Source: Thermodesulfobacteriota bacterium
GTDB taxonomy: Bacteria; Desulfobacterota; Desulfomonilia; UBA1062
Assembly: GCA_034716155.1 (NCBI GenBank)
Contig: JAYEFR010000082.1
Coordinates: 427 to 64,426 of the forward strand
Length of the DNA: 64,000 bases
Direction: 5' to 3'
Positions 15,563-59,139 of the stretch are shown piece after piece (position 1 is the stretch's first letter; the number at the start of each line of letters is the position of its first letter). A program made the position numbers and the translations under genes. Below the pieces are notes generated by a model. That model was given only the letters and a program-made list of their open reading frames with translations, was not told where the DNA came from and made no database searches.

Positions 15563-15633
15563 GATCCTCCTCCTTCTTTTAAAAGATAAGGGGAGAGTTT
15601 TACCCTGCCCCCTTATATGCCTGCATATCGATA

Positions 15634-16542: not shown

Positions 16543-16619
16543 AACCCCTCCTTTCTCTCTGAGTATACTTTAAAACAGAAATGCTCAATTTTCAAAACTC
16601 CCTGGTCTATCCGGGAATC

Positions 16620-16658
16620 TGCGGGAGGCCTCAGTTATAACGTATAATGCCTCCCGCA
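16620..16658. other. 10-bp perfect-stem hairpin (TGCGGGAGGC...GCCTCCCGCA) between the NMO and SDR genes
   Basis: Inverted repeat with a 19-nt loop; no U-tract, so it may be a stabiliser/attenuator or REP-like rather than an intrinsic terminator. Confidence 0.35.
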
Positions 16659-16675
16659 ACCTGTAATTTACATAC

Positions 16676-19300: not shown

Positions 19301-19756
19301 AAAAACCTCCTTTTTTTATTGTTGATTTCTACACACTACCAAAAAATGTCCTATTTATTTACACCTGCCAAGATTATCTATCATAAGATAACTTCCTTTT
19401 TTAACAAGGTACGCTTAACCTGTCAACATAAAATGTGGAATTTATGTAAAATATTAACATAATATAATCAATATATTATATGTAAAGTGTGTAGCCTTAC
19501 TATATGCCTATTATGTACTATGCTATATAAACATTTAGCAATCTGACAGTTGCAATACTATGATACGGTCACATTTATCACTGAAGATCAACATCAGTGT
19601 GCTCATATCCTTAAACGGTGAAAATGGTTGGCAGGGATCACAGGTCCTGCAAAGAAGATCAAAAAATCTTCCCTCACGCAAAGACGCAAAGATCGCAAAG
19701 GAAAATAAAGAAGAATGATAAAAAAAGAAAGTGTCTTTGTGTAGTTGGCGTTCTTT

Positions 19757-19925
19757 GCATGAGAATGCTTTTCATCTTTAGTTGTGAGCGCTGGCGCTCA
19801 TGCGCGTTTATATGAAAAAGAAGTCAGGAGTCAAAATTTAGAATCCAAAAGTTAGAATACACGTAATAATCCAATCGGAAGCATTCCGGCTCCTGGATTC
19901 TGAATACTTTTTTATGCCTCGTTGT
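19757..19925 (+). repeat. Intergenic repeat family A, copy 4 (Y+Z modules)
   Basis: ...GTTGTGAGCGCTGGCGCTCATGCGCGTTTATATGAAAAAGAAGTCAGGAGTCAAAATTTAGAA...GTTAGAATACACGTAATAATCCAATCGGAAGCATTCCGGCTCCTGGAT... is near-identical to 47100-47215. Confidence 0.65.
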
Positions 19926-19946
19926 GTCCGGCAGGCCATGGCTATC

Positions 19947-21098: not shown

Positions 21099-21162
21099 AT
21101 AATCCCCCTGTAATATAATTATTCCCACAGGGTATTATCATAATCCTATAATCAGATTCAAG

Positions 21163-21288
21163 TTTATATGAAAACAGGGGTCGGGGATCAGGGGCCGGTT
21201 TTCAGGGATGGATGTTTTTCTCATCCTGGGCATATTCTCATGCTTGGTTGTGGGTACCTGCGCTCATGCGGGTTTATTAGATTGGATA
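21163..21288 (+). repeat. Intergenic repeat family A, copy 2 (X+Y modules)
   Basis: TTTATATGAAAACAGGGGTCGGGGATCAGGGGCCGGTTTTCAGGGATGGATGTTTTTCTCATCC...GCGCTCATGCGGGTTTAT. Confidence 0.65.
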
Positions 21289-31900: not shown

Positions 31901-32745
31901 GATATATCATCTATAATCCACTCCATTTGTTTGGGTAAGTCTTCAAGGGAGACAAAACTGAATACATCTCGTAAGATCCCAATAGTGTGTGGAATGTTGT
32001 CGTATGCAAGTTTTCTATTAAATCCATTTTCAGAGCGGGTACGGGCAGCAAAGAGACCATAGGTAATGGTCTGGGAATAGAGATCGGCAAACTCTTCTTT
32101 AGAAAGAGTACCAATAAGATATTTCCTGAATGCCTCATAAAATCCAAAGATGTGACCTTTTCCTTCCTCTTCTTTTAACTCCTGAGCAATGACTTCATCC
32201 TTTAAAAAACGTGTCCTCTTTGCCAATTCTATTGCCAAAGTTTTCGCACTATAGACCTTTGGAAGAGAAAAGGAGAAAAACTTTTCAAGCAATTTGATAA
32301 AATCTGCCTGTTTTTCAACAGGAGGTATCATTTTAAGTTTTTGTGCAACAAATGGCCTGCCGATGAGGACTTGATCTGCCAGGGTGCCATCACGATACAG
32401 CCTAAACTCAAAGAAATTGGTTAGTATCAGATTGGGGAAAGTTTTGCGATAGCGTTTTAACTGCTCGGAATTTTCTATCCTGTCTAAATTCTCAACCATT
32501 GGTGATTTTGCTTCAATGTATCCAACAATATGCTGGGTTCCGTCCCAGACTCTGAAATCAGGATTGCCGGCTTCGGTCTTTTTTGGCAAGATTGTAATAT
32601 AAATATTCCTTTTGCCGACTGAATCTGAATATTCTTTTAATAGACCTTTGAGGACAGAATAATAACTTTCTTCCCTTGCATCCCCCCGAGTTGCAATCTC
32701 AGATATTTTTCTCAAATACGACTTTAGCATCATGTCTTCTTTCAC
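28966..32745 (-). CDS. Single-polypeptide type IIG/IIL (MmeI-like) restriction-modification enzyme, carrying an in-frame RAYT/IS200-like transposase insertion in its C-terminal region
   Basis: 1259-aa continuous ORF. N-terminus has a PD-(D/E)xK-like motif NPDFRVW...IVGYIEAKS. Gamma-class N6-adenine MTase motifs follow: YYTPESVV, VLDPAAGTLTFL (motif I) and ILGNPPYSG (motif IV). The C-terminal ...EEIFYYIYAILYSNIYRTQYAEFLKGGFPRIPF... module is typical of large type IIG/PglX-like MTases. The aa ~850-1040 insert has Y1 HuH motifs (see mobile_element). Confidence 0.7.
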   Translation of the reverse strand: MKEDMMLKSYLRKISEIATRGDAREESYYSVLKGLLKEYSDSVGKRNIYITILPKKTEAGNPDFRVWDGTQHIVGYIEAKSPMVENLDRIENSEQLKRYRKTFPNLILTNFFEFRLYRDGTLADQVLIGRPFVAQKLKMIPPVEKQADFIKLLEKFFSFSLPKVYSAKTLAIELAKRTRFLKDEVIAQELKEEEGKGHIFGFYEAFRKYLIGTLSKEEFADLYSQTITYGLFAARTRSENGFNRKLAYDNIPHTIGILRDVFSFVSLEDLPKQMEWIIDDISEVLAVTDVNEILHTYFHEGRGKDPIVHFYETFLAEYDPKTREKRGVYYTPESVVSYIVRSLHHILKQHFDKREGFAISSVTVLDPAAGTLTFLAEAAKQAVEEFVFKYGEGGEGNFIKEHILKNFYAFELMMAPYAVGYLKMSFLLEELGYRLKEDDRFKLYLTNTLEMEELAETGLPFMASLSEESHLAGKVKKEQPILVILGNPPYSGHSANASERYITIKTKKGIAKRRKIKTWIGKLIGDYKFVDGKPLGEKNPKWLQDDYVKFIRFAQWKIDQAGEGVLGYITNHSYLDNPTFRGMRQSVMNSFNEIYILDLHGNSLKKEKSPDGSKDENVFDIQQGVAIALCIKNQEKKSECKVYHSEIWGMRENKYEWLLENNVETIEWNQLSPKSEFYLFVPRDERLLEYYERWPKITEIFPLNSVGVVTSRDKFVIDSDKEKLKQRIRTFCDKNMPDGLVRQTFELKDKSNWKLEAAREEVRKDKKWGDSITKILYRPFDIRWIFYHDAVIERSRKKVMRHMMQGNIGLVFMRQVALNETYSHVFISQNIIDNRSFYSNRGIMSLAPLYLYPYTDRKELIGHMEKAEKRQPNINPKIFKALSDICKSAGPAVGPVGRTFLSDTNLEETDKNVCSTLEETDKNVCSTNDLQITRRHLPHWTLKDATYFVTFRTAQGDLSIEEQKLVLKHIIEGNGKFYTLIAAIVMPDHVHLLLTPKEEYNLSRIMRGIKGASARQLNLKRGTSGSIWQEESFDRIIRDQNELNEKMNYMLNNPVKRALTESPWGYHGWYFNGETDREETDKNVCSTNITPEEIFYYIYAILYSNIYRTQYAEFLKGGFPRIPFTRDCKIFNRMAEYGKELVDLHLLRSQELDPPLAKFQGSGDEKVEKLRYDEKQECIYINQNQYFEGIPKDCWEYQIGGYQVCSKWLKDRKDKVLSLEDIKHYCKVVTSLKKTIEVQKAIDKVYPEVEKETINLDLE
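29485..30030 (-). mobile_element. RAYT/IS200-IS605-family Y1 (HuH) transposase module flanked by GTAG-hairpin REP sequences, inserted in-frame inside the RM gene
   Basis: Hairpin GGTAGAACAGACAttcttGTCTGTTTCCTC at 29485-29515, followed by a partial reiteration through ~29530. Tandem copies GGTAGAACAGACAtttttGTCTGTTTCCTCCAA sit at 29965-29996 and 29998-30029. Between them the translation RRHLPHWTLKDATYFVTFRT...IVMPDHVHLLLTP...RGTSGSIWQEESFDRIIRD...NYMLNNPVKRAL carries Y1 transposase hallmarks (HuH = HVH, Q..F.D/R.IR, Y...NPV). No ATG start of its own; each hairpin is translated as (E)ETDKNVCST(N) within the host ORF. Confidence 0.7.
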
Positions 32746-45628: not shown

Positions 45629-46405
45629 ATGGCATCCATAGAAGAAATCCTTAAACAAAAAGGAACCCCTAGACCAAAAATCAGCCTCCGTTCTGATGGA
45701 AGAAAGCCGGAAGAAATGAGGTATGTGCATTTGACCCGCAATTATCTTAAAACCGCCCCTGGGTCTTGCCTTATAGAGGTAGGAGATACAAAGGTAGTAT
45801 GTGCAGCAAATATAGAAGAGAGGGTGCCACCTCGCCTGAAAAATACTGGGACAGGGTGGATAACAGCGGAATATAGCATGCTCCCTGCCTCAACATCCCC
45901 ACGTTCTGTAAGGGAGGCATCTCGAGGTAGGATGAAGGGAAGAACACATGAAATCCAGAGACTCATAGGAAGAGCATTAAGGGCAGCAGTGAATCTTCAA
46001 CTCCTGGGGGAAAGAACCATTTTACTGGATTGTGACGTAATACAGGCAGATGGGGGGACAAGAACTGCATCTATCACGGGTGCATACGTGGCTCTTTATG
46101 ACGCCATTTCGTGGATACTCAAAAATAGCATGATAGCCAAAAACCCTATCCATGATCAGGTAGCTGCCATCTCCGTTGGTATAGTAGAAGAAGATCTCCT
46201 CTTAGACCTTAACTATGAAGAAGACTCAAAAGCAGATGTGGATATGAATGTAGTTATGACAGGAAAAGATTATATTATAGAGGTACAGTGTACTGCTGAA
46301 GGCAGGCCCTTTTCAAAAGAACAGATGGAAACACTTATCGGAATCGCACAAGAAGGGATTCACAAACTCATACAAAAACAGTTGAATATACTTGGTCTGA
46401 AATGA
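45629..46405 (+). CDS. rph: Ribonuclease PH
   Basis: ...[11 protein letters not shown]...[12 protein letters not shown]...[20 protein letters not shown]... are canonical RNase PH motifs. Confidence 0.9.
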
Positions 46406-46992
46406 AGGTCTTGCTTGCCACCACAAACCAGAAAAAGATACAAGAAATTTCAGACATCCTTTCCGATACAACAATCACTATAATAACACCTGACGATATG
46501 GATATGTTTATGACTGTGAAAGAAGATGGATCAACCTTCAAAGAAAATGCAATCAAAAAGGCCACTGCCTGGGCAGAAGCCTCAGGAATGAATGCACTGG
46601 CTGATGATTCCGGTCTATGTCTTACAGCCCTTGGCGGGAGGCCCGGGGTGAAGTCTGCACGCTTTGCCGGAGAGAATGCGACTGATGAAGATAACTGGAG
46701 ATTATTGCTCAAGTGTATGAAGGGTATAAAAGACAGAGGGGCAAAATTTATATGCGTGGTAGCACTGGCTATGCCTGATAGTAATGTAATAACAGCACAA
46801 GGGGTCTACCCCGGTTTTATCCTGGACAAACCTGCGGGCACTAGTGGTTTTGGATATGACCCTGTCTTTTTCGATCCTGAAACAAAAAAGACCTTTGCAC
46901 AACTATCTCCTGAGGGCAAAAATCAGCGCAGCCACAGAACAAGGGCACTTCTGGCACTCAAAAGGCGCCTTAAGGAGTTAAAATATATATAA
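46402..46992 (+). CDS. rdgB: Non-canonical purine NTP pyrophosphatase (RdgB/HAM1, dITP/XTP)
   Basis: [16 protein letters not shown]..., ...GFGYDPVF...; its start overlaps the rph stop (ATGA). Confidence 0.85.
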
Positions 46993-47003
46993 CCCATCAA
47001 CTG

Positions 47004-47226
47004 TTTGTATGAAAATAGGGGTCGGGGATCAGGGGTCGGTTTTCAGGGATGAATGTTTTTCTCATCCCGAAAATATTTTCATCGTTAGTTGTGGCCGGTA
47101 GGCCATGGCAGTTTATATGAAAAAGAAGTCAGGAGTCAGAATTCAGAAGTTAGGATACACGTAATAATCCAATCGGAAGCATTCCGGATTCTGGATACTT
47201 TTTCATGCTTCGTTTATATGAAAATA
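47004..47226 (+). repeat. Intergenic repeat family A, copy 3 (most complete: X+Y+Z modules)
   Basis: TGTATGAAAATAGGGGTCGGGGATCAGGGGTCGGTTTTCAGGGATGAATGTTTTTCTCATCC...GTTTATATGAAAAAGAAGTCAGGAGTCAGAATTCAGAAGTTAGGATACACGTAATAATCCAATCGGAAGCATTCCGGATTCTGGAT...CGTTTATATGAAAATAGC. Confidence 0.65.
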
Positions 47227-47593
47227 GCAATCAGCATTAAATCAAAATAAAAAAATTTAGTGCTTACATAGAAAACATGAGTGAATATCTAGGTTTTCTA
47301 TCAGAGGGGGTCGAATTTTAAAGGAAAAGTTAGATTTAGCAAATTATGAGTTGTCTACAAAATGTAGAAAACCTTAGAATATGAGCTTATGACAATGTAA
47401 ATCAATATTATGTGGAATACCATAAAAAGTTTAGCGATCTTAGTGCATTAACTTTTGTATCTCTCTATTAAGGGGAATTTTTTATTTGGTGCTAAATGAC
47501 GAAAATCGACCGAGTCGAAGATTGACGTCATCTTGTGAAAGTAAGATACATGGCAACATATACTGTGGTAAACAAATTTTATATGGGGGGCAT

Positions 47594-48940
47594 ATGAACA
47601 AACAACCAGGTCTTGGACATATAAAAGACTTAATACAGACAAAAGTAAAAAATCCCTCAGAAAAACCGCTGATAGATCAAATGGATATCTGCATACAGGA
47701 TGGGTCTGCTATGGTATATTGCCCAAGCCCTTTTGTTCTCAATTATATACATCAACATCACAAAGACATTATTATAAATGAGATACAAAAACTCCTTGGT
47801 AAATCTGCGGACATAGAATTCTCTGTGCGCTCTAATAAAGGCTCCAATAAAAAGTCATCTTCTATAAACAAGCCCATACAAATGGTTCTCCCCTCTGCTG
47901 CTAAGCCCTCACCTGTACGAGGGCTCAATCCAAAATTTACATTTGAGGAATTTGTGGTTGGTAAGTGTAATGCCTTTGCATATGAGGCAGCAATGGCGGT
48001 GTCTGACGAGGCTCTAAGCAAATACAGTCCATTATACTTCTATTCGGATACAGGCCTTGGGAAGAGTCATATTGCGCACGCTATTGGGAATAAGGTGATA
48101 AAGTCCGAGGCAAATATTACGGTAAGGTATACCACAGCTCAAGATTTCTCCGCAGAATATGTGTATTCTGTTAGAAATAATCGTATTGATCAATTCAAAC
48201 GCACGTATAGTAGCAAGTGTGATGTCTTTTTTATTGATGATGTACATCTATTCAAAAACAAAGAAAAGACTCAAATGGAGCTAAGCTATATACTAGATGA
48301 ATTTATGAGTAATGATAAACAGGTTGTCCTTTCGGGATTCAGACCTCCGGCATCAATCCCCTATATGGATAAAGGCCTAAAATCAAGATTTTCTTCTGGA
48401 TTGGTAATAGATATAAAGAGGCCTGACAGACAAACCAGGGCCAATATTGTAAGACGTAAGGCATCAAAAGAGGGTATATCTCTTCCGGATGATATAGTAG
48501 GCTTTATTAGCGAGAATATAAAGAATAATATCAGAGAACTAGAAAGTGCAGTGCTGACCGTATCTGCTATGAGTTCTTTGATGAAAAGAGAAATCACATT
48601 GGATATGGTAAAAGAACTCCTGGAAGGAACACTTGAAAGGCGGGAAAGGATATCCATCCCGTTTATCCAGGGATTTGTGGCAAAAAACTTTGGGATCTCA
48701 AAGGAGCAATTAATCTCCCCGTCAAGAAAGAAAGGGATTGTATATCCAAGGCAAGTCGCAATATTTCTATGCAGGCACTACACAAAAGAGCCCTTACAGG
48801 TTATCGGCCAGACCTTTTCCAGAAGGCATTCCTCTATTATACACTCTCTAGAGGTAATCGATGAAATGTACACCGGAAATTTGAAGACAAAAAGAGAGAT
48901 CGATTTCCTTATGGAAACATTAGAAAATGCCGTACTCTAA
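47594..48940 (+). CDS. dnaA: Chromosomal replication initiator protein DnaA
   Basis: Domain III NPKFTFEEFVVGKCN, Walker A GDTGLGKSHIAHAIGN, Walker B-like DVFFIDDVH, sensor IRELESAV; domain IV ...YPRQVAIFLCRHYTKEPLQVIGQTFSRRHSS.... Start preferred at MNKQPGLGHIKDL (47594, G-run RBS); the 36-codon extension to 47486 looks non-coding. Confidence 0.9.
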   Translation: MNKQPGLGHIKDLIQTKVKNPSEKPLIDQMDICIQDGSAMVYCPSPFVLNYIHQHHKDIIINEIQKLLGKSADIEFSVRSNKGSNKKSSSINKPIQMVLPSAAKPSPVRGLNPKFTFEEFVVGKCNAFAYEAAMAVSDEALSKYSPLYFYSDTGLGKSHIAHAIGNKVIKSEANITVRYTTAQDFSAEYVYSVRNNRIDQFKRTYSSKCDVFFIDDVHLFKNKEKTQMELSYILDEFMSNDKQVVLSGFRPPASIPYMDKGLKSRFSSGLVIDIKRPDRQTRANIVRRKASKEGISLPDDIVGFISENIKNNIRELESAVLTVSAMSSLMKREITLDMVKELLEGTLERRERISIPFIQGFVAKNFGISKEQLISPSRKKGIVYPRQVAIFLCRHYTKEPLQVIGQTFSRRHSSIIHSLEVIDEMYTGNLKTKREIDFLMETLENAVL

Positions 48941-48943
48941 GGC

Positions 48944-49122
48944 CTTTATATGAAAATACTTGTCCGTTGTCCGTGGTTAGTTGTCAGTGGTATATTGGAA
49001 GGAGATCATCCTATTTGGAGGGTTTATTACAACGGACAACGAGCAAAAAAACTACTGACAGGTATAAGTACAGAACTAAACGATCGCTCAGGGCAAAATA
49101 CATTTTCATTCTTCGTTGTGTC
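48944..49122 (-). repeat. Intergenic repeat family B, copy 2 (inverted relative to copy 1; begins right after the dnaA stop)
   Basis: Its reverse complement aligns base-for-base with 43765-43932, including the GTCCGTTGTCCG and TTGTCAGT cores and TTTATATGAAAATAC at one end. Confidence 0.65.
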
Positions 49123-49147
49123 CAAAAGGACATGCAGGTTAGATTAG

Positions 49148-50437
49148 TTAATCGAAAGATCCCGTGTTTCCAAACTGAGAATCTTCTTTAAGAAGCGCTC
49201 TCCTGCTTATCTCTCTGAAGTTATCCACCCCTATAAAGAACTCCCTCATCATAATAACCCAGTAATACATACCCTTTTCAGTTACCCTGATGATGTCTTT
49301 ATCCATATGAATACCCCCTATTAAAAGAAAGAATAAGCACTCGACCCATAAGGCAGACCATAAACCACAACCAAACCTCTCCTTAAAAAGGGCCCTTCCC
49401 ATCTCTAAACCAAAGAGGCTCATAAGAAAGTGATATCGAGCCATCTCCTTTATGGAAAATATCTTTTTCGATTTCAAGGGGAGTCTGCCTGAATTTAAAT
49501 CTTCTGCATACTCTTTTATGGAAAATGTATTAGAGTAGATGGTGTTGCCCACAAGACCGAAAGAGCCACTTCCTGCTCCAACATATTGATCGTAGTTTAC
49601 TATATACTCATCTATCATATCTAAATCCTTTTTCGAAAAACACCATGCAGAACTTGGTGTATAACCATCAGCCAGTCTGTCTTGAATCATGCGGTAGAAG
49701 GCAGCCTCTTTTTTATAGCTTATCCTCCCCATGATCTTCTCCATCCTTCTCTTGGTGGCATCAGGTACCATCAATGGATAAAATGTAACCTGGTCCGGGG
49801 CAATTTTTTCTATCACATCAAGATCATGCTCCAGCATAGCTGGCGTCTGAATTGGAAAATTATATATCATGTCCAGATTTAGTGTCCCTACATCCCCCAT
49901 GACATCTTGCACAAGACGCTTCATCTCAAATCCGGATCCATATCTATCATACCTGTCTATAAGTCTTAGGATGGTATCGTCAAAGCTTTGTATACCTACA
50001 GATATTCTGCCAACCCCCATATCAACCAGTAAGGCTATATCCTTTTTGTGTAGATGATCCGGGTTTGTCTCTACAGATATGTCTTTTGGCGAGAACAATT
50101 TATGTATAAGAGATAGAGTATCAACAAGCTCATCCATCATAATCGTAGGGGTCCCCCCTCCAATATATACCCCTCCAAATTTATACCCCATATCCTTGTA
50201 GATCTTCAGTTCTTTTCTCAATGCCTTGTAGTATAGCCGCGCAGTCTCTTCATGAAACTTAAACCTGTGAAAAGAACAATACGGACACAGTTCTTTACAA
50301 AATGGTATGTGCACATAGAGTTCTATGCTATCCAATGGTGGATTTGGCGGAAGCAAAATATTATCAGGTTCCTCAAATTTAAGGTATGCCTTTGACTTGT
50401 ATTTTAAAAACCATCCAATAAACTCTTCTATAATCAT
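49148..50437 (-). CDS. Radical SAM protein, HemN/HemW-like (oxygen-independent coproporphyrinogen-III oxidase-like/heme chaperone)
   Basis: ...ELYVHIPFCKELCPYCSF... (CxxxCxxC) followed by the HemN-type core. Confidence 0.75.
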   Translation of the reverse strand: MIIEEFIGWFLKYKSKAYLKFEEPDNILLPPNPPLDSIELYVHIPFCKELCPYCSFHRFKFHEETARLYYKALRKELKIYKDMGYKFGGVYIGGGTPTIMMDELVDTLSLIHKLFSPKDISVETNPDHLHKKDIALLVDMGVGRISVGIQSFDDTILRLIDRYDRYGSGFEMKRLVQDVMGDVGTLNLDMIYNFPIQTPAMLEHDLDVIEKIAPDQVTFYPLMVPDATKRRMEKIMGRISYKKEAAFYRMIQDRLADGYTPSSAWCFSKKDLDMIDEYIVNYDQYVGAGSGSFGLVGNTIYSNTFSIKEYAEDLNSGRLPLKSKKIFSIKEMARYHFLMSLFGLEMGRALFKERFGCGLWSALWVECLFFLLIGGIHMDKDIIRVTEKGMYYWVIMMREFFIGVDNFREISRRALLKEDSQFGNTGSFD

Positions 50438-50480
50438 TTATGGTTCCACCTTTTAGGATTTGTGCTACAAATAAAAATAT

Positions 50481-50684
50481 CTATTTAAAGAAATAAAGAA
50501 TGAAACTTATGATAATACTTATCAATATGCAAGTGGCCATGGGGAAATAAAACCTAAATCCAGGCCTTATTATCTTGATATCCCCTAGCAGCCTCCCTAA
50601 CCAGCTCAGATTATCACCCAGGATAAATATCAACCCTGCGGTAATGACGACTACCATTATCAGTAAAAAACCTGTTTCTCTCAT
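50481..50684 (-). CDS. DUF2905 family small membrane protein
   Basis: 67 aa; ...LGRLLGDIKIIRPGFRFYFPMATCILISI... matches the DUF2905 signature. Confidence 0.55.
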   Translation of the reverse strand: MRETGFLLIMVVVITAGLIFILGDNLSWLGRLLGDIKIIRPGFRFYFPMATCILISIIISFILYFFK

Positions 50685-50896
50685 GGAATTCGTCTTTTAA
50701 TTAAATATGCCGGGTTTGTCCAGCCCCCCTTTGATGTGGCAATCATAGTACTGGAAAAATCAGATAAGACTATGTTAAATAATTAGTAACTACTCAGGTG
50801 GATAGACTGAAGGTGGAAGGTAGAAGGTTTCTAATGCGTGATCACACAAAACTAGGTATTCAGCCTTTAAATGGCTTGATTCGAGCGTTGCGGGAT

Positions 50897-50921
50897 GGCT
50901 GAAATGGTTCAGCCTTTAGTC
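50897..50921 (+). terminator. Intrinsic-terminator-like hairpin GGCTGAA-ATGG-TTCAGCC followed by TTTAGTCTT; possible 5'-leader attenuator of the cupin-rhomboid genes
   Basis: 7-bp perfect stem plus T-rich tail ~60 nt upstream of the cupin start; an upstream TTCAGCCTTTAAATGGCTTGA segment could form an alternative pairing. Confidence 0.35.
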
Positions 50922-50980
50922 TTCAACCTAAATAGCTGGGTAGTTACGATAATTGGAGATATTACTAAAGGAGGGAGCAA

Positions 50981-51322
50981 ATGATCGCACGTCATATATC
51001 GAAGGTAAAAGAGACCACAGATATAAGTAATGCCCGAGGCGTAAGCAAACGGGTTCTGATAGGCAAGGATGAAGGTGCCCCAATATTCTATATGAGACAC
51101 TTTCATATAAAACCTTATGGGTTCAGTCCATTACATTCTCACCCATGGGAACACGAGATATATATCATATCTGGTAAAGGCACTGTCACTGTGGGTGATG
51201 AAGAGGCGGAACTCAAAGAAGGTATGGCAATATTTATCCCGCCTGATACCCCCCACCAGATTAAGGCTCAAGAAAGTGATATCGAATTCCTCTGCTGTAT
51301 ACCAGCCATAGAAGAAACATAA
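50981..51322 (+). CDS. Cupin-domain protein
   Basis: 113 aa; ...HSHPWEHEIYIISGKG...IFIPPDTPHQ... cupin motifs; GGAGGG RBS. Confidence 0.75.
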   Translation: MIARHISKVKETTDISNARGVSKRVLIGKDEGAPIFYMRHFHIKPYGFSPLHSHPWEHEIYIISGKGTVTVGDEEAELKEGMAIFIPPDTPHQIKAQESDIEFLCCIPAIEET

Positions 51323-51330
51323 AATAACAT

Positions 51331-52026
51331 ATGATTCCTATAAGGGACACTACTATCTCAAAAGGCATCCCCTTTGTTACCTTAAGCCTTATTATGTTAA
51401 ATGCAGCCATGTTTGTAGAAGAAATCACAATAGGCCCTGAGATCATACAGCTGTACAGCACAAGCCCTTTAGATATCTCGATGTGGATTACAAAAGGTAA
51501 CGGCGACTTTTTTAGTATCCACAAGGCCATTTTTGTATCTGGATTCATCCATGGCGGCTACATCCATTTTCTGGGGAATATGCTCTTTCTATATGTATTC
51601 GGCCCGGGTGCAGAAAGGGCATTTGGCAAGTTGAGATATGCAGTTTTTTACTGCCTCGCTATATTTGTCGCCTTTTATACACATACTGCCATCTATCCTC
51701 ACTCTCACATCCCTGTAATCGGCGCATCTGGTGCTATTGCTGCTGTAATGGGTTCATATCTTATCTTTTATCCGAGGGCAAAGATTGTAACCATTATCCC
51801 CATATTCTTCTTTATAAAGATAGTAGAAGTCCCATCTGTTATATTCATATTAGGATGGTTTATCCTTCAGGGTGCAAATGGCTATCTTAGTATTGGCTCT
51901 CAAACTTCCATTGCATGGTGGGCACATATAGGCGGCTTTACTATGGGTGCCCTTGTTGGGCTAAGGTACAGATTATTTAGCAACCCACTCGGGCCAGTGG
52001 GTGTCCCGAGTCATGTCAAAAAGTAA
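51331..52026 (+). CDS. Rhomboid-family intramembrane serine protease
   Basis: ...HGGYIHFLGNMLFL..., catalytic GASGAI, ...AHIGGF... Confidence 0.8.
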   Translation: MIPIRDTTISKGIPFVTLSLIMLNAAMFVEEITIGPEIIQLYSTSPLDISMWITKGNGDFFSIHKAIFVSGFIHGGYIHFLGNMLFLYVFGPGAERAFGKLRYAVFYCLAIFVAFYTHTAIYPHSHIPVIGASGAIAAVMGSYLIFYPRAKIVTIIPIFFFIKIVEVPSVIFILGWFILQGANGYLSIGSQTSIAWWAHIGGFTMGALVGLRYRLFSNPLGPVGVPSHVKK

Positions 52027-52094
52027 CCATGTGGTATTGAGTAGAATCAACATATTACAAGAATAGTTACTTAGGAGTATATATAAATAACCAA

Positions 52095-52472
52095 ATGAAT
52101 ATATTTCAAGAGACTACTATAGCAGATAAAATTATGATCGCTTCTATCCTTACCACCTGTTTGATCTGGGCCATATTTTTATTCAAAGGAACATCCCTTG
52201 GGCAGGAAGTGGAAATCTATAACATGAACGGCCTCTTAGGGATCTATTCACTTGATCAAGATACCACTATCAACGTGCCAGGCCCGCTTGGATATACTGT
52301 GGTGGCAATAAAATCCTGTAAGGTATCTGTGAAGTCATCTCCGTGTCCTAATAAGATATGTGTGCTCACCGGCAAAATAGAACATACAGGAGAGGGCCTT
52401 ATATGTATCCCCAATAAAGTAAATGTAATAATAAAAGGCAAAAAGCAAAAATTTGATACACTATCCTATTAA
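52095..52472 (+). CDS. NusG-domain-II (DUF1312)-containing small membrane-anchored protein
   Basis: N-terminal TM, then ...CPNKICVLTGKIEHTGEGLICIPNKVNVIIKG... typical of the NusG_II family. Confidence 0.5.
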   Translation: MNIFQETTIADKIMIASILTTCLIWAIFLFKGTSLGQEVEIYNMNGLLGIYSLDQDTTINVPGPLGYTVVAIKSCKVSVKSSPCPNKICVLTGKIEHTGEGLICIPNKVNVIIKGKKQKFDTLSY

Positions 52473-52527
52473 AGCCTTTGAGAATCAAGATGATTGGGGG
52501 ATCCCGAAATTTATTATATCATTTAGC

Positions 52528-54198
52528 CTAAGCGCTATATCTTTGCTCTAACCGTTTTTTTGTATACTCATCTATCATCTTCAACAAGACATCCTTCTTT
52601 GCCTCAAGATATGTATTTCCTTTTATATATTCATTGAAGAACAACATTCTTTTCTCAAGGGGGGTAAATTCCGTAAGCGATGCATTTAAATAGCTTAAAT
52701 TTTTCGCTATCTGCCTGATTCCCAAGAAATGACGCCTTTTAAGCCTATCCAAATCTATTAAAAAGAATTCTTTTTTATCCAGAGAAACAAGGATATTATC
52801 TCCCTTTAGATCCACGGGCAATAACCCCATCTCATGGATATGTCTTACATAATGAGAGAGGGCTAATATTTCTTCATCACTAATACCCTTTTGCTCTACA
52901 TACTCTACGAGGTTTAATGCATTAAGACCGTATGTCGCAATAAATGAATTGATAAGCACCCTAAATACCCTCTTCTCACAGGCGAATACCGGCATGGGTG
53001 TGCGCATTCCCAAGGAATCCATAACAAGGGCCCCTTCAAAGGTATTAAGCGCCCTGCTTTTCCGAAATACATTTTTGATGGTGTCTTTAATCCCCTTAAA
53101 ATTGTATCGTTTCAGATATATGAAATCTCTATCCAGGTATCCCCTCTTCACAAAGGTCGTCCTGGATCGATTCATTACATCCCAGGCGGATGACTCCATG
53201 AATATATTAGGGGCTATGATTTGTGGTGGGACCCGTGCTTTTTTGGCTAAAAACCACTTATATCCATTTTTCATTATAACTTTATATCTTAGAGTTAAGT
53301 CTTCCAACCCCCATGTAGACGGCATACCTATTAGGTGCCATAAAAGGAGGACAAAAGATCGCTTTAATCTTTTCCTCATATCAGGGATAAAAGAAATCAA
53401 TAGATTCGCACCAATCTCTAATGAAAGTTTCAGGAGCATACCTATATAAAGCATTATAGTGTTGTATATGCCTTTATGTTTCAGGAAAAACCTGTACAAA
53501 GAACGATAAAATTCTATCTTCCTTTGGGTATCCAGCCTTCTTGCGCTCAAGCCCTGATAATGAACGATCTTGAGCCCAGGCAGGTGCCATACCTCAAAGC
53601 CATGATCTGTTGCCCTTTTACAAAAGTCTGTCTCCTCTAAGTAAAAGAAGAAGCCTTCATCAAGGAGACCTATCTCATCTATAAGGCACCTCCTTATCAT
53701 CATAAACGCACCAATGACAGATGGGACCTCTACAGGGGATGTAAACTTGGAGCGCTTGCTTGGATAGGACACAGGAAAGATAATCTTTAAAAGGGCCTTA
53801 TTCAAGAGTTGAGTGGTAAGCGTTGGTATAACATCTACAGAATTTTGGAGTCTCCTATCCCCAAAGACAAGCTGAATCCCACAGACTCCAGCCCTTGGAT
53901 GCCCCTTCATAAAATTTTGCGCAGGGGTTATTACATCGGTAATAAGCAAGGTGTCTGCATTCAATAATAATACAAACTCGCCTGAAGCTATCCTTATGCC
54001 CATATTTGCTGCCCTGGCAAACCCGAGATTCTGTCTGTTCTCTATAATAGTAATGTCTTTATCTGGAATATTAAGGGAAGTGGCAAAATTATTCACGACT
54101 ATAATCTCGTAATCACAGCCTGCATTTTCTCTAATGGATGCAATACAGTTGATAAGATGTTCATCTTGGCCCAGTGTTATTATGATTATGCTGACCAT
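52528..54198 (-). CDS. Bifunctional family-2 glycosyltransferase / lipopolysaccharide (Kdo/WaaP-type) kinase fusion protein
   Basis: N-terminal GT2 (MVSIIIITLGQDEHLINCIASIREN...), C-terminal LPS-kinase-like region (...LPVDLKGDNILVSL...FFLIDLDRLK...). Confidence 0.65.
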   Translation of the reverse strand: MVSIIIITLGQDEHLINCIASIRENAGCDYEIIVVNNFATSLNIPDKDITIIENRQNLGFARAANMGIRIASGEFVLLLNADTLLITDVITPAQNFMKGHPRAGVCGIQLVFGDRRLQNSVDVIPTLTTQLLNKALLKIIFPVSYPSKRSKFTSPVEVPSVIGAFMMIRRCLIDEIGLLDEGFFFYLEETDFCKRATDHGFEVWHLPGLKIVHYQGLSARRLDTQRKIEFYRSLYRFFLKHKGIYNTIMLYIGMLLKLSLEIGANLLISFIPDMRKRLKRSFVLLLWHLIGMPSTWGLEDLTLRYKVIMKNGYKWFLAKKARVPPQIIAPNIFMESSAWDVMNRSRTTFVKRGYLDRDFIYLKRYNFKGIKDTIKNVFRKSRALNTFEGALVMDSLGMRTPMPVFACEKRVFRVLINSFIATYGLNALNLVEYVEQKGISDEEILALSHYVRHIHEMGLLPVDLKGDNILVSLDKKEFFLIDLDRLKRRHFLGIRQIAKNLSYLNASLTEFTPLEKRMLFFNEYIKGNTYLEAKKDVLLKMIDEYTKKRLEQRYSA

Positions 54199-55151
54199 AA
54201 CTCCTCTAGTCTTTCTATTACATCATCTGAGGTAATTGCCTCCATACATATAGGATTGCTACACCTTCTTGCATTGCACGGATTACACCCCACGTCCTTT
54301 TGGATGACCTGTCCTTTAAATGGCCCTGTCCTTTTTGGATCTGATGGTCCAAACAGGGCAACTACATCCTTTCCAATGGCAGAAGCCAGGTGCATAGGCC
54401 CTGTATCACAACTTACCACCACCTTAGAGCCGGCCAGCACCTCCTTTAGTTCCAGGACCGATGTCTTTCCAACAAGGGCTATCACTTCACTATCTGCCAT
54501 GGTTAGTATCTCCTTTGCCATAGGGATATCCTGACTTGCCCCCGTAAGTACAGAGACCATTTGAAATCTCCGCCTAATGCCCTTCGCTAGATCGGCAAAC
54601 CCTTTTGCATTCCATCTATTTGCTTTTTTGGTAGCCCCAAGATTCAATACCACATAGTCATCCGGAAGATTATACGGCGTTATGCCTTTTACAGGGATAT
54701 CCCATCTGATATCCGGATTCTTTATTCCAAGGTATTTGCCAAACTCCAAATATTGGAATACCATATGGGTGTTCGGATCAGATTCCGGTATCCTCTCGAA
54801 TGGAAACAGATAACTCGATTCCTTGCACCTTTTTTTATCAAAGCCTATGCGTCTTTTAGCCTTTGATGCCTGGCAAAATAGAGCAGATTTTATGATCCTT
54901 TGCAGATCCAATACTACATCAAAATTTCTACACCTGAGCTGTTTTATAAGACCAGGAAGAGCCTCTGCCCAATTATATCTGTCAAACAATATTGCATGAT
55001 CCACATAACTGTGTTCTGCAACTATGGGATAGCTAAGTGGCTCAACAACCCAGGATACATCTGCGTGCATATATCTTTTTAAGTTTATCACGAGAGGCAG
55101 TGTATTAATCACATCACCTAAAGAACCCAACTTTATAATCAATATATCCAT
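54186..55151 (-). CDS. Family-9 glycosyltransferase (ADP-heptose:LPS heptosyltransferase-like)
   Basis: MDILIIKLGSLGDVINTLPLV... is the canonical GT9 N-terminus. Start preferred at 55151; the track start at 55187 lies inside a 34-bp perfect palindrome. Confidence 0.8.
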   Translation of the reverse strand: MDILIIKLGSLGDVINTLPLVINLKRYMHADVSWVVEPLSYPIVAEHSYVDHAILFDRYNWAEALPGLIKQLRCRNFDVVLDLQRIIKSALFCQASKAKRRIGFDKKRCKESSYLFPFERIPESDPNTHMVFQYLEFGKYLGIKNPDIRWDIPVKGITPYNLPDDYVVLNLGATKKANRWNAKGFADLAKGIRRRFQMVSVLTGASQDIPMAKEILTMADSEVIALVGKTSVLELKEVLAGSKVVVSCDTGPMHLASAIGKDVVALFGPSDPKRTGPFKGQVIQKDVGCNPCNARRCSNPICMEAITSDDVIERLEELWSA

Positions 55152-55177
55152 AACGCTTAATCCTACAATGACACTTA

Positions 55178-55211
55178 GTAATTTCATAACCGTTAACGGT
55201 TATGAAATTAC
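55178..55211. promoter_or_regulatory. 34-bp perfect palindrome GTAATTTCATAACCGTTAACGGTTATGAAATTAC at the 5' edge of the LPS-core operon
   Basis: Seen directly: the 17-nt half-sites are exact reverse complements around a GTTAAC centre. Confidence 0.55.
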
Positions 55212-55337
55212 TTTGTCCTCTGCGTATAGTTTTATGGAGTAGGAGTAATGGAATGTTGGAGTACTGGAATTTTAAAAGCCATCCCACTAGATGCACAATT
55301 GCGCACACAGAACAATGGCAAACGCCCACCATCTTTT

Positions 55338-55362
55338 CAATACTCCAATACTCCAATACTCC
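55338..55362. repeat. Three tandem CAATACTC octamers in the same divergent promoter region
   Basis: CAATACTCCAATACTCCAATACTCC seen directly. Confidence 0.5.
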
Positions 55363-55470
55363 AAACAATATGTTGTGTTATAGTTACTCAATTTATACCA
55401 TATATTGTACCAAAAATGCTAGATGCCGTTGTAAGGTTAAGTGATATTTCATATTTAATATTTTAGCAAG

Positions 55471-55499
55471 TCCTTGACACTAGTATAGAACAGTTGTAT
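55471..55499 (+). promoter_or_regulatory. Sigma70-like promoter (TTGACA, 17 nt spacer, TATTCT) for the coiled-coil gene at 55535
   Basis: TTGACActagtatagaacagttgTATTCT ~35 nt upstream of a strong AGGAGG RBS. Confidence 0.4.
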
Positions 55500-55534
55500 T
55501 CTAAAGACAAATATAATCTATAAGGAGGTTCCCC

Positions 55535-56041
55535 ATGGAGGAAAAAAAGAATAAAAGCTCGACAGCCCCTATTATCTTAGCTGTGGTAGTGTTTATTATT
55601 GGGCTTGGCCTCGGGTATTTCTTGTGGGGTGTAAACAGAGAAAAGGCTCCTGATTATAAAAACATGCTAAAAGAGACCATCGATTACATAGCCACAATAG
55701 AGCATAAAAACCGGCAAACCATCCAGAAGGTAGATGCCCTGGAAAATGAAATTGCTATGCTGCAGAAAGAGAAGGTGGCCTCCGAGGTGTCAGAGGAGAC
55801 AGAGGTTAAGATTAAAGAGATGGAAAAAGAGATACAAGTCCTTCAAGAAGAAAATGCAAGCTTAAAATCCAGTACAACAACACAAAAGGAAATCTTACAA
55901 CAAAACCGGATGTTAAAGGCTACGATCCAACAACTTACGGAGGAATTGACATCCATGAATGCCCGTATGGGTGCTGTGCAGGAGTTGGTAGAACCTCAGA
56001 CGACTATTGGCACATCTGAAATTCCTCCTGGCTTAAAATAA
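55535..56041 (+). CDS. Membrane-anchored coiled-coil protein of unknown function
   Basis: N-terminal TM (APIILAVVVFIIGLGLGYFLW) followed by a heptad-rich, Glu/Lys-rich segment. Confidence 0.5.
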   Translation: MEEKKNKSSTAPIILAVVVFIIGLGLGYFLWGVNREKAPDYKNMLKETIDYIATIEHKNRQTIQKVDALENEIAMLQKEKVASEVSEETEVKIKEMEKEIQVLQEENASLKSSTTTQKEILQQNRMLKATIQQLTEELTSMNARMGAVQELVEPQTTIGTSEIPPGLK

Positions 56042-56044
56042 CCA

Positions 56045-57475
56045 TCACACCTTAGATCTGGCTACCTTCTGGATAAAGACCTCAGCAATTTCAGGATCAA
56101 ACTGGGTTCCCTTACACCTGGCTATCTCACGAATGGCCTTCTCAAGGGGAAGGGCCTTCCTGTAAGGCCTGTCAGATGTCATGGCATCAAAGGAATCTGC
56201 CACAGCGATCACCCTGGATAAAAATGGAATGTCACCACCTTTAAGCCCCTTAGGATAGCCTTTACCATCATATCGCTCGTGATGATGCCTGATAATCTCT
56301 ACGGTATGTCTCATTGGTACAATGGATGAGAGTATATCCGCTCCAATATCAGGATGTCTCTTTATAACATCCATCTCATCAGGTGTAAGACTGCCTGGTT
56401 TTAATAGTATTCTATCCGGTATACCTACCTTGCCTATATCATGCAATGACGCGGCTGCTTGCAGGATATCCGTAGTATCCTCAGGAATATTGAGGGCCTT
56501 TACTATAGCCATAGAAAGGGCTGTAACCCTGGTAGAATGCTGACTGGTATGAGGGTCTCTTGCATCTAATATTTTTGCCATAGTATTTAAGGTAGCTAAA
56601 ACATTTTCATATAGCCCTTCATAAAGGACTACATTTTCCATACGTTCTGCTACCCTCTGAAGTAGGTATACGATCTTTCCTTCATCATCACTACTGAGCT
56701 TCTTAGCGGTAATTACCTTCAAAGCGCCAAACATCTGCCCTTCTATCATCAAAGGTAACACGCTTATGTGGTCTGAGGTTCCCATTGCGCTCGACGCCTT
56801 GTATCTCACTACCCCTCTTATCAACGAATCGGGGGTTAGAGTTAAGCCATCTCCTCCATCAGGGTCTATAAACATCTTTTTTTGTTTATTCAAAGGAAGG
56901 AAAGAGATCTCCCCTGAATCCACAATATCTGAAGTTACATCAATCATGGCTGATACCAAATCCTTGATAGCGCCGAGGTAGGTGATCCTCTCGGATATGG
57001 CTTGGAGTGCCGTTACTTCCTGAACCCTCTTTTCTAACTGCCCTGCAAGATTATCTATGAGGCGATGCCATGCAAGCACATCTGAAATCTTCCTGTTTTC
57101 TTCTAAAAGAGTCCTTTCTCTTTTTACCTTATTTAATATATACTCAATCTGTTTGACCCTGAATGGTTTTGATATAAAGTCGGAGGCACCATACTTCATT
57201 GCATCTATAGCTATCTCAATGGATGCATATCCTGTTATTACTATTACAGGCGTAGCCATATCTCGTGCCTTAATCTCTTTTATAAGCTCAAGCCCTGTCA
57301 TCTTAGGCATCATTATATCTGTAAATACACACAGGTAGGGCCCTGAATTAAACCTGGCTATAGCACTAAGCCCATCTTCTGCAGTAAAGGGCTTACACCC
57401 TAACATAGAGATCAAATCTGAAAGGGTATCCCGTATCCCAGGATCATCATCTACAATTAAAATTTTGTCTGTCAC
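56045..57475 (-). CDS. Response regulator with receiver + (GAF-like linker) + HD-GYP phosphodiesterase domains
   Basis: REC (...ILIVDDDPGIRDTL...FTDIMMP...), C-terminal HD-GYP (...HSTRV...LHDIGKVGIPD...HHERYDGKGYP...). Confidence 0.8.
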   Translation of the reverse strand: MTDKILIVDDDPGIRDTLSDLISMLGCKPFTAEDGLSAIARFNSGPYLCVFTDIMMPKMTGLELIKEIKARDMATPVIVITGYASIEIAIDAMKYGASDFISKPFRVKQIEYILNKVKRERTLLEENRKISDVLAWHRLIDNLAGQLEKRVQEVTALQAISERITYLGAIKDLVSAMIDVTSDIVDSGEISFLPLNKQKKMFIDPDGGDGLTLTPDSLIRGVVRYKASSAMGTSDHISVLPLMIEGQMFGALKVITAKKLSSDDEGKIVYLLQRVAERMENVVLYEGLYENVLATLNTMAKILDARDPHTSQHSTRVTALSMAIVKALNIPEDTTDILQAAASLHDIGKVGIPDRILLKPGSLTPDEMDVIKRHPDIGADILSSIVPMRHTVEIIRHHHERYDGKGYPKGLKGGDIPFLSRVIAVADSFDAMTSDRPYRKALPLEKAIREIARCKGTQFDPEIAEVFIQKVARSKV

Positions 57476-58090
57476 TTAAGCAATCCTCTTGAGAAGTTTT
57501 CCTTTATATTCGCCAAATTCATCCTCTGTAATAAGACCTTCCGCCTTCAGGTGGCCAAGGTGTTCAATTGCTGAGAAGACCTTCCCTGCTTCGTAATGCC
57601 CCCTCAAAAAATGCTCGAGGGACTGCCTGGGCACTTTGGGTGCATAAACCTCTTCCTTTCCCTCCAGCCTTTGCGTAAGCAATTTTATCTCCTCTTTAAG
57701 ATGATACACCTCCTCTATTAATCCCTGCCTCTGTCTGAGCCGATTTATCACGAATCTTATCTCTTCGATATTAAATGGCTTTTTTATATAATAAAAAGCG
57801 CCACGATTTATAGCCTCTATAGCTGAATCCAGGGATGCATAGCCTGTAATCAGGACGAAAGGGACATCATACCCCTTTATATTAAGCTCTTCCAGCAGAC
57901 CCAAGCCTGAAATCCCGGGAAGTACAAGATCTGATATAATGAGATCAAACGTCTCCTCCGGAAGGATCTCCAAAAGGGCCTCTGCCTGATGTTTACGAGT
58001 TACATCGAGGCCTTCTTCTTTTAAGATTTGTTCTATAAGGTCTAAGATTGCCTCGTCATCATCTACAATGGCTACCTTTGCAAGTCTCAT
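57476..58090 (-). CDS. Response regulator receiver protein with C-terminal SHOCT-like short domain
   Basis: REC (...VAIVDDDEAILDLI...ISDLVLPGISG...), C-terminal ...LKAEGLITEDEFGEYKGKLLKRI. Confidence 0.65.
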   Translation of the reverse strand: MRLAKVAIVDDDEAILDLIEQILKEEGLDVTRKHQAEALLEILPEETFDLIISDLVLPGISGLGLLEELNIKGYDVPFVLITGYASLDSAIEAINRGAFYYIKKPFNIEEIRFVINRLRQRQGLIEEVYHLKEEIKLLTQRLEGKEEVYAPKVPRQSLEHFLRGHYEAGKVFSAIEHLGHLKAEGLITEDEFGEYKGKLLKRIA

Positions 58091-58143
58091 CTATAGTTAT
58101 ATCGAAGGGGCTTCCATATTACTTTAGAAATAAATTTGATGTT

Positions 58144-59139
58144 CTACTTTTTAGCCTTGCGGGCCCTATTTACTGCCTTGTTATGCTCTGCAAGTGTAGA
58201 GGAAAAATCATGATGCCCATCTCCTTTTGATACAAAATACAGATAATCCACCTTGGCAGGATAAAGTATCGCGGTAATGGCACTCCCGCCCGGATTACAT
58301 ATAGGCCCTGGAGGAAGGCCGGAATGTCTGTATGTGTTGTATGTCGAATCACGCAAGAGATCCTTCTTTGATATCTTCCCTTGAAAACCTTCTATACCAT
58401 ATATAGCAGTAGGGTCTGACTGCAATCTCATGCCTTTCTTTAATCTATTATGAAACACAGCAGAGATTATAGGCATCTCTTGAAGATACACCGCCTCTTT
58501 CTCCACAATGGACGCGAGTGTAATAATTTCATTCTCCGAAAGCCCCCACTCCCTTGCTTTGTTTGCAAGATTTGGAGTATAAAAGTGATAAAGCTGAGTT
58601 ACCATTATCCCTATTATCTCAAGAGGTGTCATGTCAGGAGACAAAAAATAGGTCTCCGGAAAGAGATATCCTTCCATGGCAGGGGCATCCAAGTCAAAAA
58701 ATTCGGCTGTCTGCCTTGAGCATGCTAATTTTATAAACTCATGTCTGTCGACCAGGCCTTTAGCCGACAAGACATCTGCTACATCAAATATATTGGACCC
58801 CTCAGGGATAGTAACCTTATACCTTATGGTCTTCCCACGAAAGAGGGCGTCTATAATCCCTTTAGGACAAAGCTCTCCTTCAAATACATATACCCCTGCC
58901 TGAAGATGCCTGGCCTTTTGAGAATACAGCGCCACAAGCATAAAGAGCGAGGCATTTGAAACAACACCTCTTTCCTCAAGTTCTTTAGAAATATTCCATG
59001 CACTTGTGCCACTTTTGATATTTATGTCTACTGGTGCATTTAATAAAACAGGTGTAGTTATGAAAACATAGATATGGATAACACCTATTATAATAAGAGA
59101 GGATACTATAGAGAAAAATAAGCCCCTGCAATCCTTCAT
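58144..59139 (-). CDS. mltG: Endolytic murein transglycosylase MltG (YceG family)
   Basis: N-terminal TM anchor plus YceG-like core (...KVTIPEGSNIFDVADVL...). Confidence 0.8.
   Translation of the reverse strand: MKDCRGLFFSIVSSLIIIGVIHIYVFITTPVLLNAPVDINIKSGTSAWNISKELEERGVVSNASLFMLVALYSQKARHLQAGVYVFEGELCPKGIIDALFRGKTIRYKVTIPEGSNIFDVADVLSAKGLVDRHEFIKLACSRQTAEFFDLDAPAMEGYLFPETYFLSPDMTPLEIIGIMVTQLYHFYTPNLANKAREWGLSENEIITLASIVEKEAVYLQEMPIISAVFHNRLKKGMRLQSDPTAIYGIEGFQGKISKKDLLRDSTYNTYRHSGLPPGPICNPGGSAITAILYPAKVDYLYFVSKGDGHHDFSSTLAEHNKAVNRARKAKK

Follow-up and report, generated by a model that had tools for sequence, protein, structure and literature searches.

An inverted pair of DnaA-box-like 9-mers upstream of dnaA in a Thermodesulfobacteriota contig is a candidate autoregulatory operator

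Bacillus-type origins of replication (oriC) are located at dnaA–dnaN, where the non-coding DNA upstream of dnaA contains box-like sites and an AT-rich tract. In E. coli, dnaA has the promoters p1 and p2, and the protein represses its own gene through a DnaA box situated between the two; the leader/control region is a few hundred bp long (PMC5835720). A further arrangement is found in the DnaA-reactivating sequences (DARS1 and DARS2) of E. coli, the core of which is composed of two opposed DnaA boxes separated by a 5-bp gap plus a third box (PMC6868365). The dnaA gene compared with these systems here lies in a 64,000-nt stretch of contig JAYEFR010000082.1 (positions 427 to 64,426) from the Thermodesulfobacteriota assembly GCA_034716155.1. 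The whole of this stretch is referred to as the window, and all positions are counted from its first letter. The non-coding region directly upstream of this dnaA contains a palindrome made of two DnaA-box-like 9-mers, which is proposed to be a DnaA operator.

The palindrome, GTTGTCTACAAAATGTAGAAAAC, is located at 47350–47372 and is composed of the half-sites TTGTCTACA (47351–47359, + strand) and TTTTCTACA (47363–47371, − strand) flanking an AAA gap, so that it reads TTGTCTACA-AAA-TGTAGAAAA on one strand. An earlier reading of this DNA made from its letters only (the sequence-only reading) had described a near-perfect palindrome at 47378–47400; the palindrome is real and lies 28 nt upstream of that position. 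To place it among relatives, a scan with one genome per species provided 80 loci, designated here by L numbers. Approximately 50 of these carry a DnaA that is 52–92% identical to the window DnaA, and these originate from metagenome-assembled genomes (MAGs) labelled Desulfomonilia, Syntrophaceae UBA1062/UBA6087, Deltaproteobacteria or Thermodesulfobacteriota. The upstream regions of 47 loci were aligned, of which L001, a contig of the same organism, duplicates the window sequence, leaving 46 distinct loci. The palindrome is present in 43 of the 46, paralogous copies included, at 215–253 bp before the start codon and across a range of 48–92% DnaA identity. The three loci lacking it (L040, L042 and L044) form one divergent paralogue group.

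The family consensus of the palindrome is TTWTCKACA-WWW-TGTMGAWAA, with a 3-bp gap that is always A/T. The consensus of the 86 half-sites is (G)TTWTCKACA, in which positions 1, 2, 4, 7, 8 and 9 are invariant, position 3 is A or T and rarely G, and position 5 is C in 80 half-sites. Position 6 is T in 63 half-sites, G in 19, A in four and C in none. The palindrome of the window shares 97% identity with that of L003, compared with 58–78% for the flanks and 67% at synonymous sites. The inverted pair occurs once per ±10 kb locus, with no further copies in 50 related loci, and it was not found upstream of any other gene in 1.4 Mb of related sequence. Single half-sites are at chance level in the window (4 vs 2.9 expected). 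At positions 3 and 6 the two half-sites change independently of one another, so that pairing between them is not maintained; this favours a binding site for a protein over a hairpin in RNA or DNA. A hairpin or terminator was rejected on the same grounds and for want of a GC-rich stem and a U-tract. A literature search on the variant box strings and on dnaA paralogues returned nothing relevant.

The canonical DnaA box, TTWTNCACA or TTATCCACA, normally has an invariant C at position 6. The half-site matches seven of the eight specified positions of this consensus, namely TTWT (1–4), including the same W at position 3, and ACA (7–9). The exception is position 6, occupied in the window clade by T or G and in no case by C; position 5, unspecified in the consensus, is almost always C. 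Canonical boxes are themselves lacking, as the sequence-only reading had held: TTWTNCACA has no match in 46990–47600 and five in the whole window (5.9 expected), and nothing within one mismatch of TTATCCACA occurs in the 800 bp upstream of dnaA. No enrichment of canonical boxes was detected anywhere in the window, using exact TTWTNCACA or TTATCCACA with up to one or two mismatches, and these consensus scans revealed no clear box cluster at the locus. The weak site offered earlier as an example, TGTGGAATA (47411–47419), has two mismatches to the consensus and is not kept in L003. The inverted repeat ATAGAAAAC...GTTTTCTAT (47268–47301) was also rejected as a source of extra boxes, being located in a decayed glgA-like 3' end and lost as a repeat in L003. 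The other suggestion of that reading, that the boxes are divergent, fares better in that the palindrome is a clade-wide pair of inverted 9-mers departing from the DnaA box at position 6, with DnaA binding predicted by sequence. A clade box carrying T or G at this position would be missed by consensus scans because these bases replace the C.

The region 46993–47593 can be read as a composite, in which the left 235 bp would be repeats at a synteny breakpoint and the right 340 bp would be the ancestral dnaA control region. The proposed order within the latter is a glgA-like relic, the palindrome, an AT-rich spacer of constrained length, the promoter, a G-run ribosome-binding site (RBS) and ATG 47594. 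The conserved block at 47256–47345 (+ strand) lines up in register with the C-terminal codons of glgA-like genes of glycosyltransferase family 5 (GT5) and contains stop codons. It is 78% identical to L003, compared with 67% at synonymous sites, and based on the alignment with glgA-like C-termini it is probably the decayed 3' end of a lost gene of this type. The AT-rich tract 3' of the palindrome has the family consensus ATTGATATTA ... AAAATTAACA, and in 46 relatives it spans 40–50 bp with 74–78% A+T, +80 to +125 from the centre of the palindrome; inspection by eye recognised no 13-mer or DnaA-trio repeats in it.

The probable core promoter (47502–47551, + strand) was recognized from conserved blocks in the alignment of the 47 loci. 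It is composed of AAAATCG (47502–47508; family consensus ATAAYCG), the −35 hexamer TTGACG (47522–47527) and a weak −10 hexamer, ATACAT (47546–47551), for which the family consensus is CATTAT after a 17-nt spacer. The −35 hexamer is near-consensus and lies in the conserved block GGTTTGAYCTTT, with TTGAC conserved in the family. The RBS (47585–47590, + strand) belongs to a GGGGG/GGAGG run that is conserved across the family 5–10 nt before the start codon. In the 33 loci in which automatic detection placed both elements, the palindrome centre is 159–163 bp from the −35 hexamer, and the start codon follows the −35 hexamer at a variable distance of 54–90 bp. A structured RNA in the spacer that leads from the palindrome to the promoter is not supported, as RNAalifold provided no consensus structure for it and Rfam gave no match in the whole window. 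Since the spacer also varies in sequence, the constraint on its length acts on the DNA.

At least seven MAGs contribute two full-length loci of the window's DnaA clade (L040/L046, L013/L039, L014/L036, L015/L051, L016/L035, L043/L044 and L042/L058). L040 and L046 are found on one 1.21-Mb contig (CAXXDQ010000003.1) approximately 800 kb apart, so bin contamination cannot explain this pair. A neighbour-joining tree contains two duplication events, a younger one inside the main group (L035, L036, L039 and L051) and an older one separating L040, L042 and L044 from L043, L046 and L058, which suggests that dnaA was duplicated twice independently. All copies outside the L040/L042/L044 group keep both the palindrome and the promoter.

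The palindrome is interpreted, with confidence somewhat better than even, as a conserved and rigidly positioned inverted pair of variant DnaA boxes that most likely functions as an autoregulatory operator of dnaA. DnaA would be the most economical candidate for the protein that binds it, because the half-site matches the DnaA box at all but one position, the site is found only before dnaA, it has been duplicated together with dnaA and no regulator gene is conserved nearby. The palindrome is also kept where glgA is absent, and dnaA is the sole consistently present gene for a DNA-binding protein beside its copies. Provided that the position-6 variant counts as a DnaA box, the control region has DnaA-box sequences that are conserved among relatives. 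In the proposed mechanism, two DnaA molecules would bind the palindrome through domain IV, and the bound protein, approximately 161 bp upstream of the −35 hexamer, would feed back on dnaA transcription; the palindrome may also titrate DnaA. The arrangement resembles the E. coli dnaA promoter region in having box-like sites in non-coding DNA directly 5' of dnaA within a control region of a few hundred bp, and negative feedback would be expected, a sign of regulation that we infer. It differs from E. coli in that there are two boxes, exactly inverted with a 3-bp gap and with T or G at position 6, and in that these lie at a rigid distance of approximately 161 bp upstream of the only recognisable −35 hexamer.

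Domain IV was also compared at the residues that contact bases in E. coli DnaA, which are R399, P423, D433, H434, T435 and H439 (PMC2533591, PMC7561715, PMC5043019). The window DnaA has R, Q, R, H, S and H at these positions, and therefore differs at three of the six. In the clade alignment the R399 equivalent is invariant, and P423, D433 and T435 are replaced by Q, R/K and S, respectively. The change of D433 to K or R was rejected as the cause of the change from C to K at box position 6, as the DnaA of the Syntrophobacterales outgroup also has K there, yet two canonical TTTTCCACA boxes are found at fixed relative positions upstream of its dnaA. In the Syntrophobacterales loci L056, L057, L059, L060, L061, L063 and L065 the TTTTCCACA pair is in the same orientation and in every case 145–146 bp apart, which gives the phylum a further rigid box arrangement and the operator reading an outgroup parallel.

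Several points weigh against an operator bound by DnaA. No residue change was found that accounts for T or G at a box position where C is normally invariant, and the binding of DnaA to the palindrome is itself a prediction from sequence. The palindrome lies approximately 185 bp upstream of the presumed transcription start, which is far for simple repression, so that a second promoter, looping or oligomerisation would be needed. The promoter consensus scan is at chance level (8 sites vs 7.5 expected) and the −10 hexamer of the window is poor, so that the sigma-70-type assignment at 47502–47551 is given as probable. Finally, a symmetric 9-3-9 site is also what a dimeric transcription factor would use. 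The palindrome would then be the operator of an unrelated dimeric regulator of dnaA, with its likeness to the DnaA box a coincidence. The perfect two-fold symmetry and the 3-bp A/T spacer are typical of dimeric helix-turn-helix operators, position 6 is never the C that canonical DnaA boxes require, and no known change in a contact residue explains its loss. Such a regulator is nonetheless considered unlikely: the half-site fits seven of the eight specified positions of TTWTNCACA, including W3, and precedes dnaA itself, no regulator gene is conserved next to any copy, and the site was not seen before any other gene in the 1.4 Mb of related sequence.

Autoregulation by DnaA is also preferred to a main role outside transcription, in which the inverted pair would be a DARS-like core, where a head-to-head DnaA dimer promotes ADP release, or a plain DnaA titration site. 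The two opposed boxes lie a few bp apart with a strictly kept gap, as do the opposed boxes of the E. coli DARS cores (PMC6868365). The gap here is 3 bp rather than 5 bp, the third box that DARS requires is not conserved, and the fixed linkage of the pair to the dnaA promoter points to transcription, which makes a DARS-like or titrating role very improbable. A broader and more tentative proposal, held to be possible if somewhat doubtful, is that a clade of uncultured Desulfobacterota (Desulfomonilia/'Syntrophaceae' UBA-type MAGs) has re-tuned its DnaA to a box with T or G at position 6. A rigid head-to-head pair of such boxes would serve as a dnaA control or DnaA-reactivating module that was copied with each dnaA duplication. 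If the DnaA of this clade does read TTWTCKACA, origin prediction with TTATCCACA-type boxes would fail for a large environmental group of Desulfobacterota, and the clade would offer a natural example of changed DnaA-box specificity that could help to explain the reading of position 6 by domain IV. With its strict spacing and its inheritance with duplicated dnaA, the inverted pair would also be a compact and testable module of initiator autoregulation.

The region upstream of dnaA is unlikely to be the replication origin. The cumulative GC skew, proposed earlier as a check on the full contig, falls steadily through the dnaA locus in the window. The third codon positions of the + strand are rich in C to the left and to the right of dnaA in genes of either orientation, and the − strand carries 79% of coding bases to the left of dnaA and 76% to the right. 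Because the cumulative skew, the skew at third codon positions and the gene-strand bias are unchanged across dnaA, a switch of the origin type is absent at 47 kb, and locally the DNA has the signal of a single replichore. The window skew is −0.028 to the left and −0.091 to the right, compared with a change of sign in some relatives. The leading strand is usually G-rich. If this rule holds, the − strand appears to be the leading strand, and the origin would be located beyond the right end of the window. The earlier suggestion that the origin lies elsewhere is therefore supported by the absence of a skew or orientation switch at 47 kb, and its location outside the window is what we infer. The region has two variant boxes and no canonical ones, and in none of the relatives do boxes cluster within 10 kb of dnaA.

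Compared with a Bacillus-type oriC, the locus shares non-coding DNA upstream of dnaA with box-like sites and an AT-rich tract. It differs in having no dnaN, only two boxes with no cluster within ±10 kb and no skew or orientation switch in the window, and in that the element is duplicated with paralogous dnaA copies. The intergenic region could still act as a compact origin or as half of a bipartite one, formed by the box pair and the AT-rich tract 80–125 bp downstream, with the dnaA promoter embedded in the origin as in Bacillus or Helicobacter. Several observations speak for such an origin and against the reading preferred above. In relatives, genes upstream of glgA–dnaA are on the − strand and most genes downstream are on the + strand, and the skew goes from negative to approximately zero or positive across dnaA in 28 of 29 type-1 loci and from −0.10 to +0.05 in L043, L046 and L058. 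The intergenic region is the only sizeable conserved non-coding stretch at this switch, a 40–50 bp tract of 74–78% A+T is kept at a fixed distance from the boxes, and the rigid spacing suggests the assembly of a nucleoprotein complex. In the window, moreover, the skew analysis had only 15 kb to work with on the right side of dnaA.

Gene orientation and the common descent of the loci both confound the skew change in relatives, and in the window neither strand composition nor gene orientation switches at dnaA. Apart from the two boxes, no conserved box-like sites are present. Genomes with two dnaA genes carry the element at both copies, and the secondary copies L036, L039 and L051 have it without a skew change, so an oriC at this element would require two or three origins per genome. 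An origin in the intergenic region is consequently considered quite unlikely, and an operator at dnaA is retained as the preferred reading, though the region close to dnaA may have had an ancestral origin function.

The ORF at 47486–48940 (+ strand) encodes DnaA, with matches to Pfam Bac_DnaA (4.9e-49, full model) and Bac_DnaA_C (6.3e-21) and to the NCBIfam equivalog TIGR00362 (397.5 bits, above the cut-off of 343.9), and its identity is as unambiguous as originally stated. The Walker A (GLGKSH), Walker B (DDVH) and arginine-finger (KSRF) motifs are invariant across the DnaA family alignment. The SRF arginine, which we take to be the arginine finger, pairs with the corresponding SRF arginine of B. 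subtilis DnaA. Domain IV, with the C-terminal helix-turn-helix and DnaA signature, can be aligned to the solved DnaA structures 8btg, 2z4r, 1l8q, 1j1v and 3pvp. The DnaA of this clade exhibits some departures from usual motifs, with GLGKSH for GLGKTH and SGFRPP for SSDRPP, and still passes the equivalog threshold. An invariant DKGL is found where B. subtilis has EDRL, so that R260 (B. subtilis numbering) is replaced by glycine.

The suspicion that the start of this ORF was mis-called, with the true start at ATG 47594 behind a G-run RBS and a non-coding extension before it, is upheld by comparison of N-termini. Database DnaA homologues are mostly 446–448 aa, and the closest of them (P0001, 92% identity) begins MNKQQGL, equivalent to ATG 47594. 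The 36-codon extension is broken by in-frame stops in L002 (DnaA 92% identical) and L003 (75%) and overlaps the conserved promoter, including the −35 hexamer. Based on this evidence and on the conserved G-run RBS, the annotated coding sequence should be corrected to 47594–48940 (+ strand), encoding a protein of 448 aa.

The repeats upstream of dnaA are small mobile-like elements, designated family A. Two tandem copies occur at 47003–47110 and 47111–47211 (+ strand; 86–89% identical to dispersed copies), followed by a third family-A terminal motif at 47212–47227 (+ strand). Each copy starts with GTTTRTATGAAAA and forms a long hairpin closed by ATGAAAA...TTTTCAT ends, with fold z-scores of −2.8 and −2.3. 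Other copies in the window are located at 21162–21253 (87%) and 19799–19901 (86–89%). The window contains 14 occurrences of the terminal motif GTTTATATGAAAA with up to two mismatches (3.3 expected), most of them immediately after the ends of genes. The motif was not found in loci of the window's dnaA clade except L001. A family-A-type element that starts with CTTTATATGAAAA is found between dnaA and the radical-SAM gene (48944–49147, + strand). L002 is collinear with window positions 47479–59121 at 90–94% nucleotide identity and lacks 48947–49138 (192 bp), having approximately 9 bp at that point.

The family resembles repetitive extragenic palindromic (REP) sequences, bacterial interspersed mosaic elements (BIMEs) and miniature inverted-repeat transposable elements (MITEs) in its length of approximately 100 nt, inverted ends, hairpins, numerous copies at the 3' ends of genes and presence in one but not another of two close relatives. 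No target-site duplication is evident by eye at the repeat junctions, and no transposase partner was identified, although no search aimed at one was made. Judged by their sequences, the family-A repeats appear to be small MITE/REP-like mobile elements with no link to initiation. The repeat-rich look of the upstream region is due to these insertions, and the repeat noted earlier is real. Two further segments, 50784–50956 (173 bp) and 55155–55440 (286 bp), are also missing in L002 and belong to other families, with their own inverted ends (GTAACTAC...GTAGTTAC and CTTAATCCTACAA...TTGTAAGGTTAAG). The window genome seems to be rich in several MITE-like families.

Upstream of these repeats are rph (45629–46405, + strand; Pfam RNase_PH) and rdgB/Ham1 (46402–46992, + strand; Pfam Ham1p_like). 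Downstream, the neighbour of dnaA is not dnaN but a convergent radical-SAM gene (49148–50437, − strand), which Pfam and NCBIfam place in the HemN/HemW-like family PRK08629. Both flanks are thereby confirmed as first described. The radical-SAM gene is followed by a cupin gene (50981–51322, + strand; Pfam/NCBIfam) and a rhomboid gene (51331–52026, + strand; named from a Pfam match on the L084 orthologue), which together make up a conserved downstream block (49148–52026). By tblastn synteny, dnaA is followed by the convergent radical-SAM gene, often the cupin gene, and the rhomboid gene in approximately 40 related loci. As this block is common to the main group, the window copy is the main dnaA orthologue. 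The possibility that it is a secondary paralogue, raised with the first description, was rejected on the basis of its place in the main orthologue group of the tree and this downstream synteny.

The upstream side is not conserved. In most relatives a glgA-like GT5 gene is directly 5' of dnaA, and rph/rdgB in this position is specific to the window genome, as it occurs in none of the related loci. L003 lacks glgA and has the same further-upstream genes as the glgA-bearing relatives. It retains a MiaB-like radical-SAM gene (7582–8829) and a gene of approximately 200 aa (8993–9580), counterparts of which precede glgA–dnaA in L084 (6405–8310). The window has neither the glgA-like, the MiaB-like radical-SAM nor the ~200-aa gene upstream of dnaA, and its nucleotide homology to L003 begins at 47256 (blastn). 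Because the upstream genes of L003 are missing, the synteny break is placed at the boundary between the inserted repeats and the dnaA control region. From these comparisons, a rearrangement breakpoint appears to adjoin the inserted repeats behind rdgB, and in the window lineage both flanks of the 5-kb dnaA block are rearranged.

No dnaN, gyrB, recF or parAB domain was identified with Pfam or NCBIfam among approximately 40 large ORFs of the window, which answers the earlier call to locate dnaN and gyrB. A tblastn search with E. coli DnaN, of limited sensitivity, found no match in the window or in 86 related loci (1.42 Mb of fetched sequence). Annotated neighbourhoods of both paralogue types, of L003 and of two outgroups (Desulfocicer vacuolatum DSM 3385 and a Syntrophobacterales chromosome) also have no dnaN beside dnaA. 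The absence of dnaN beside dnaA is therefore real and no oddity, since the lack of dnaA–dnaN linkage is ordinary in these Desulfobacterota. For annotation, neither this lack nor the nearby repeats signals anything unusual.

Some features elsewhere in the window are of separate interest. An ORF of 1259 aa (28966–32745, − strand) contains N6_Mtase and Type ISP C-terminal specificity domains, a match to an IS200-like Y1 transposase at residues 978–1029 and a 33-nt repeat, GGTAGAACAGACATTTTTGTCTGTTTCCTCCAA, at 29485, 29965 and 29998; it could represent a restriction-modification gene that has undergone an insertion or fusion. The 5' part of a short-chain dehydrogenase ORF (15634–16542, − strand) overlaps a tRNA-Asp gene on the same strand (16381–16468, −), and the true start of the dehydrogenase gene is probably further downstream. 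The first 20 kb of the window (1–20000) exhibit a G+C content of approximately 47–50%, compared with approximately 37–43% in the rest (27000–64000), and encode aldehyde:ferredoxin oxidoreductase, a peptide ABC transporter and acyl-CoA genes. This step in G+C content might mark acquired DNA.

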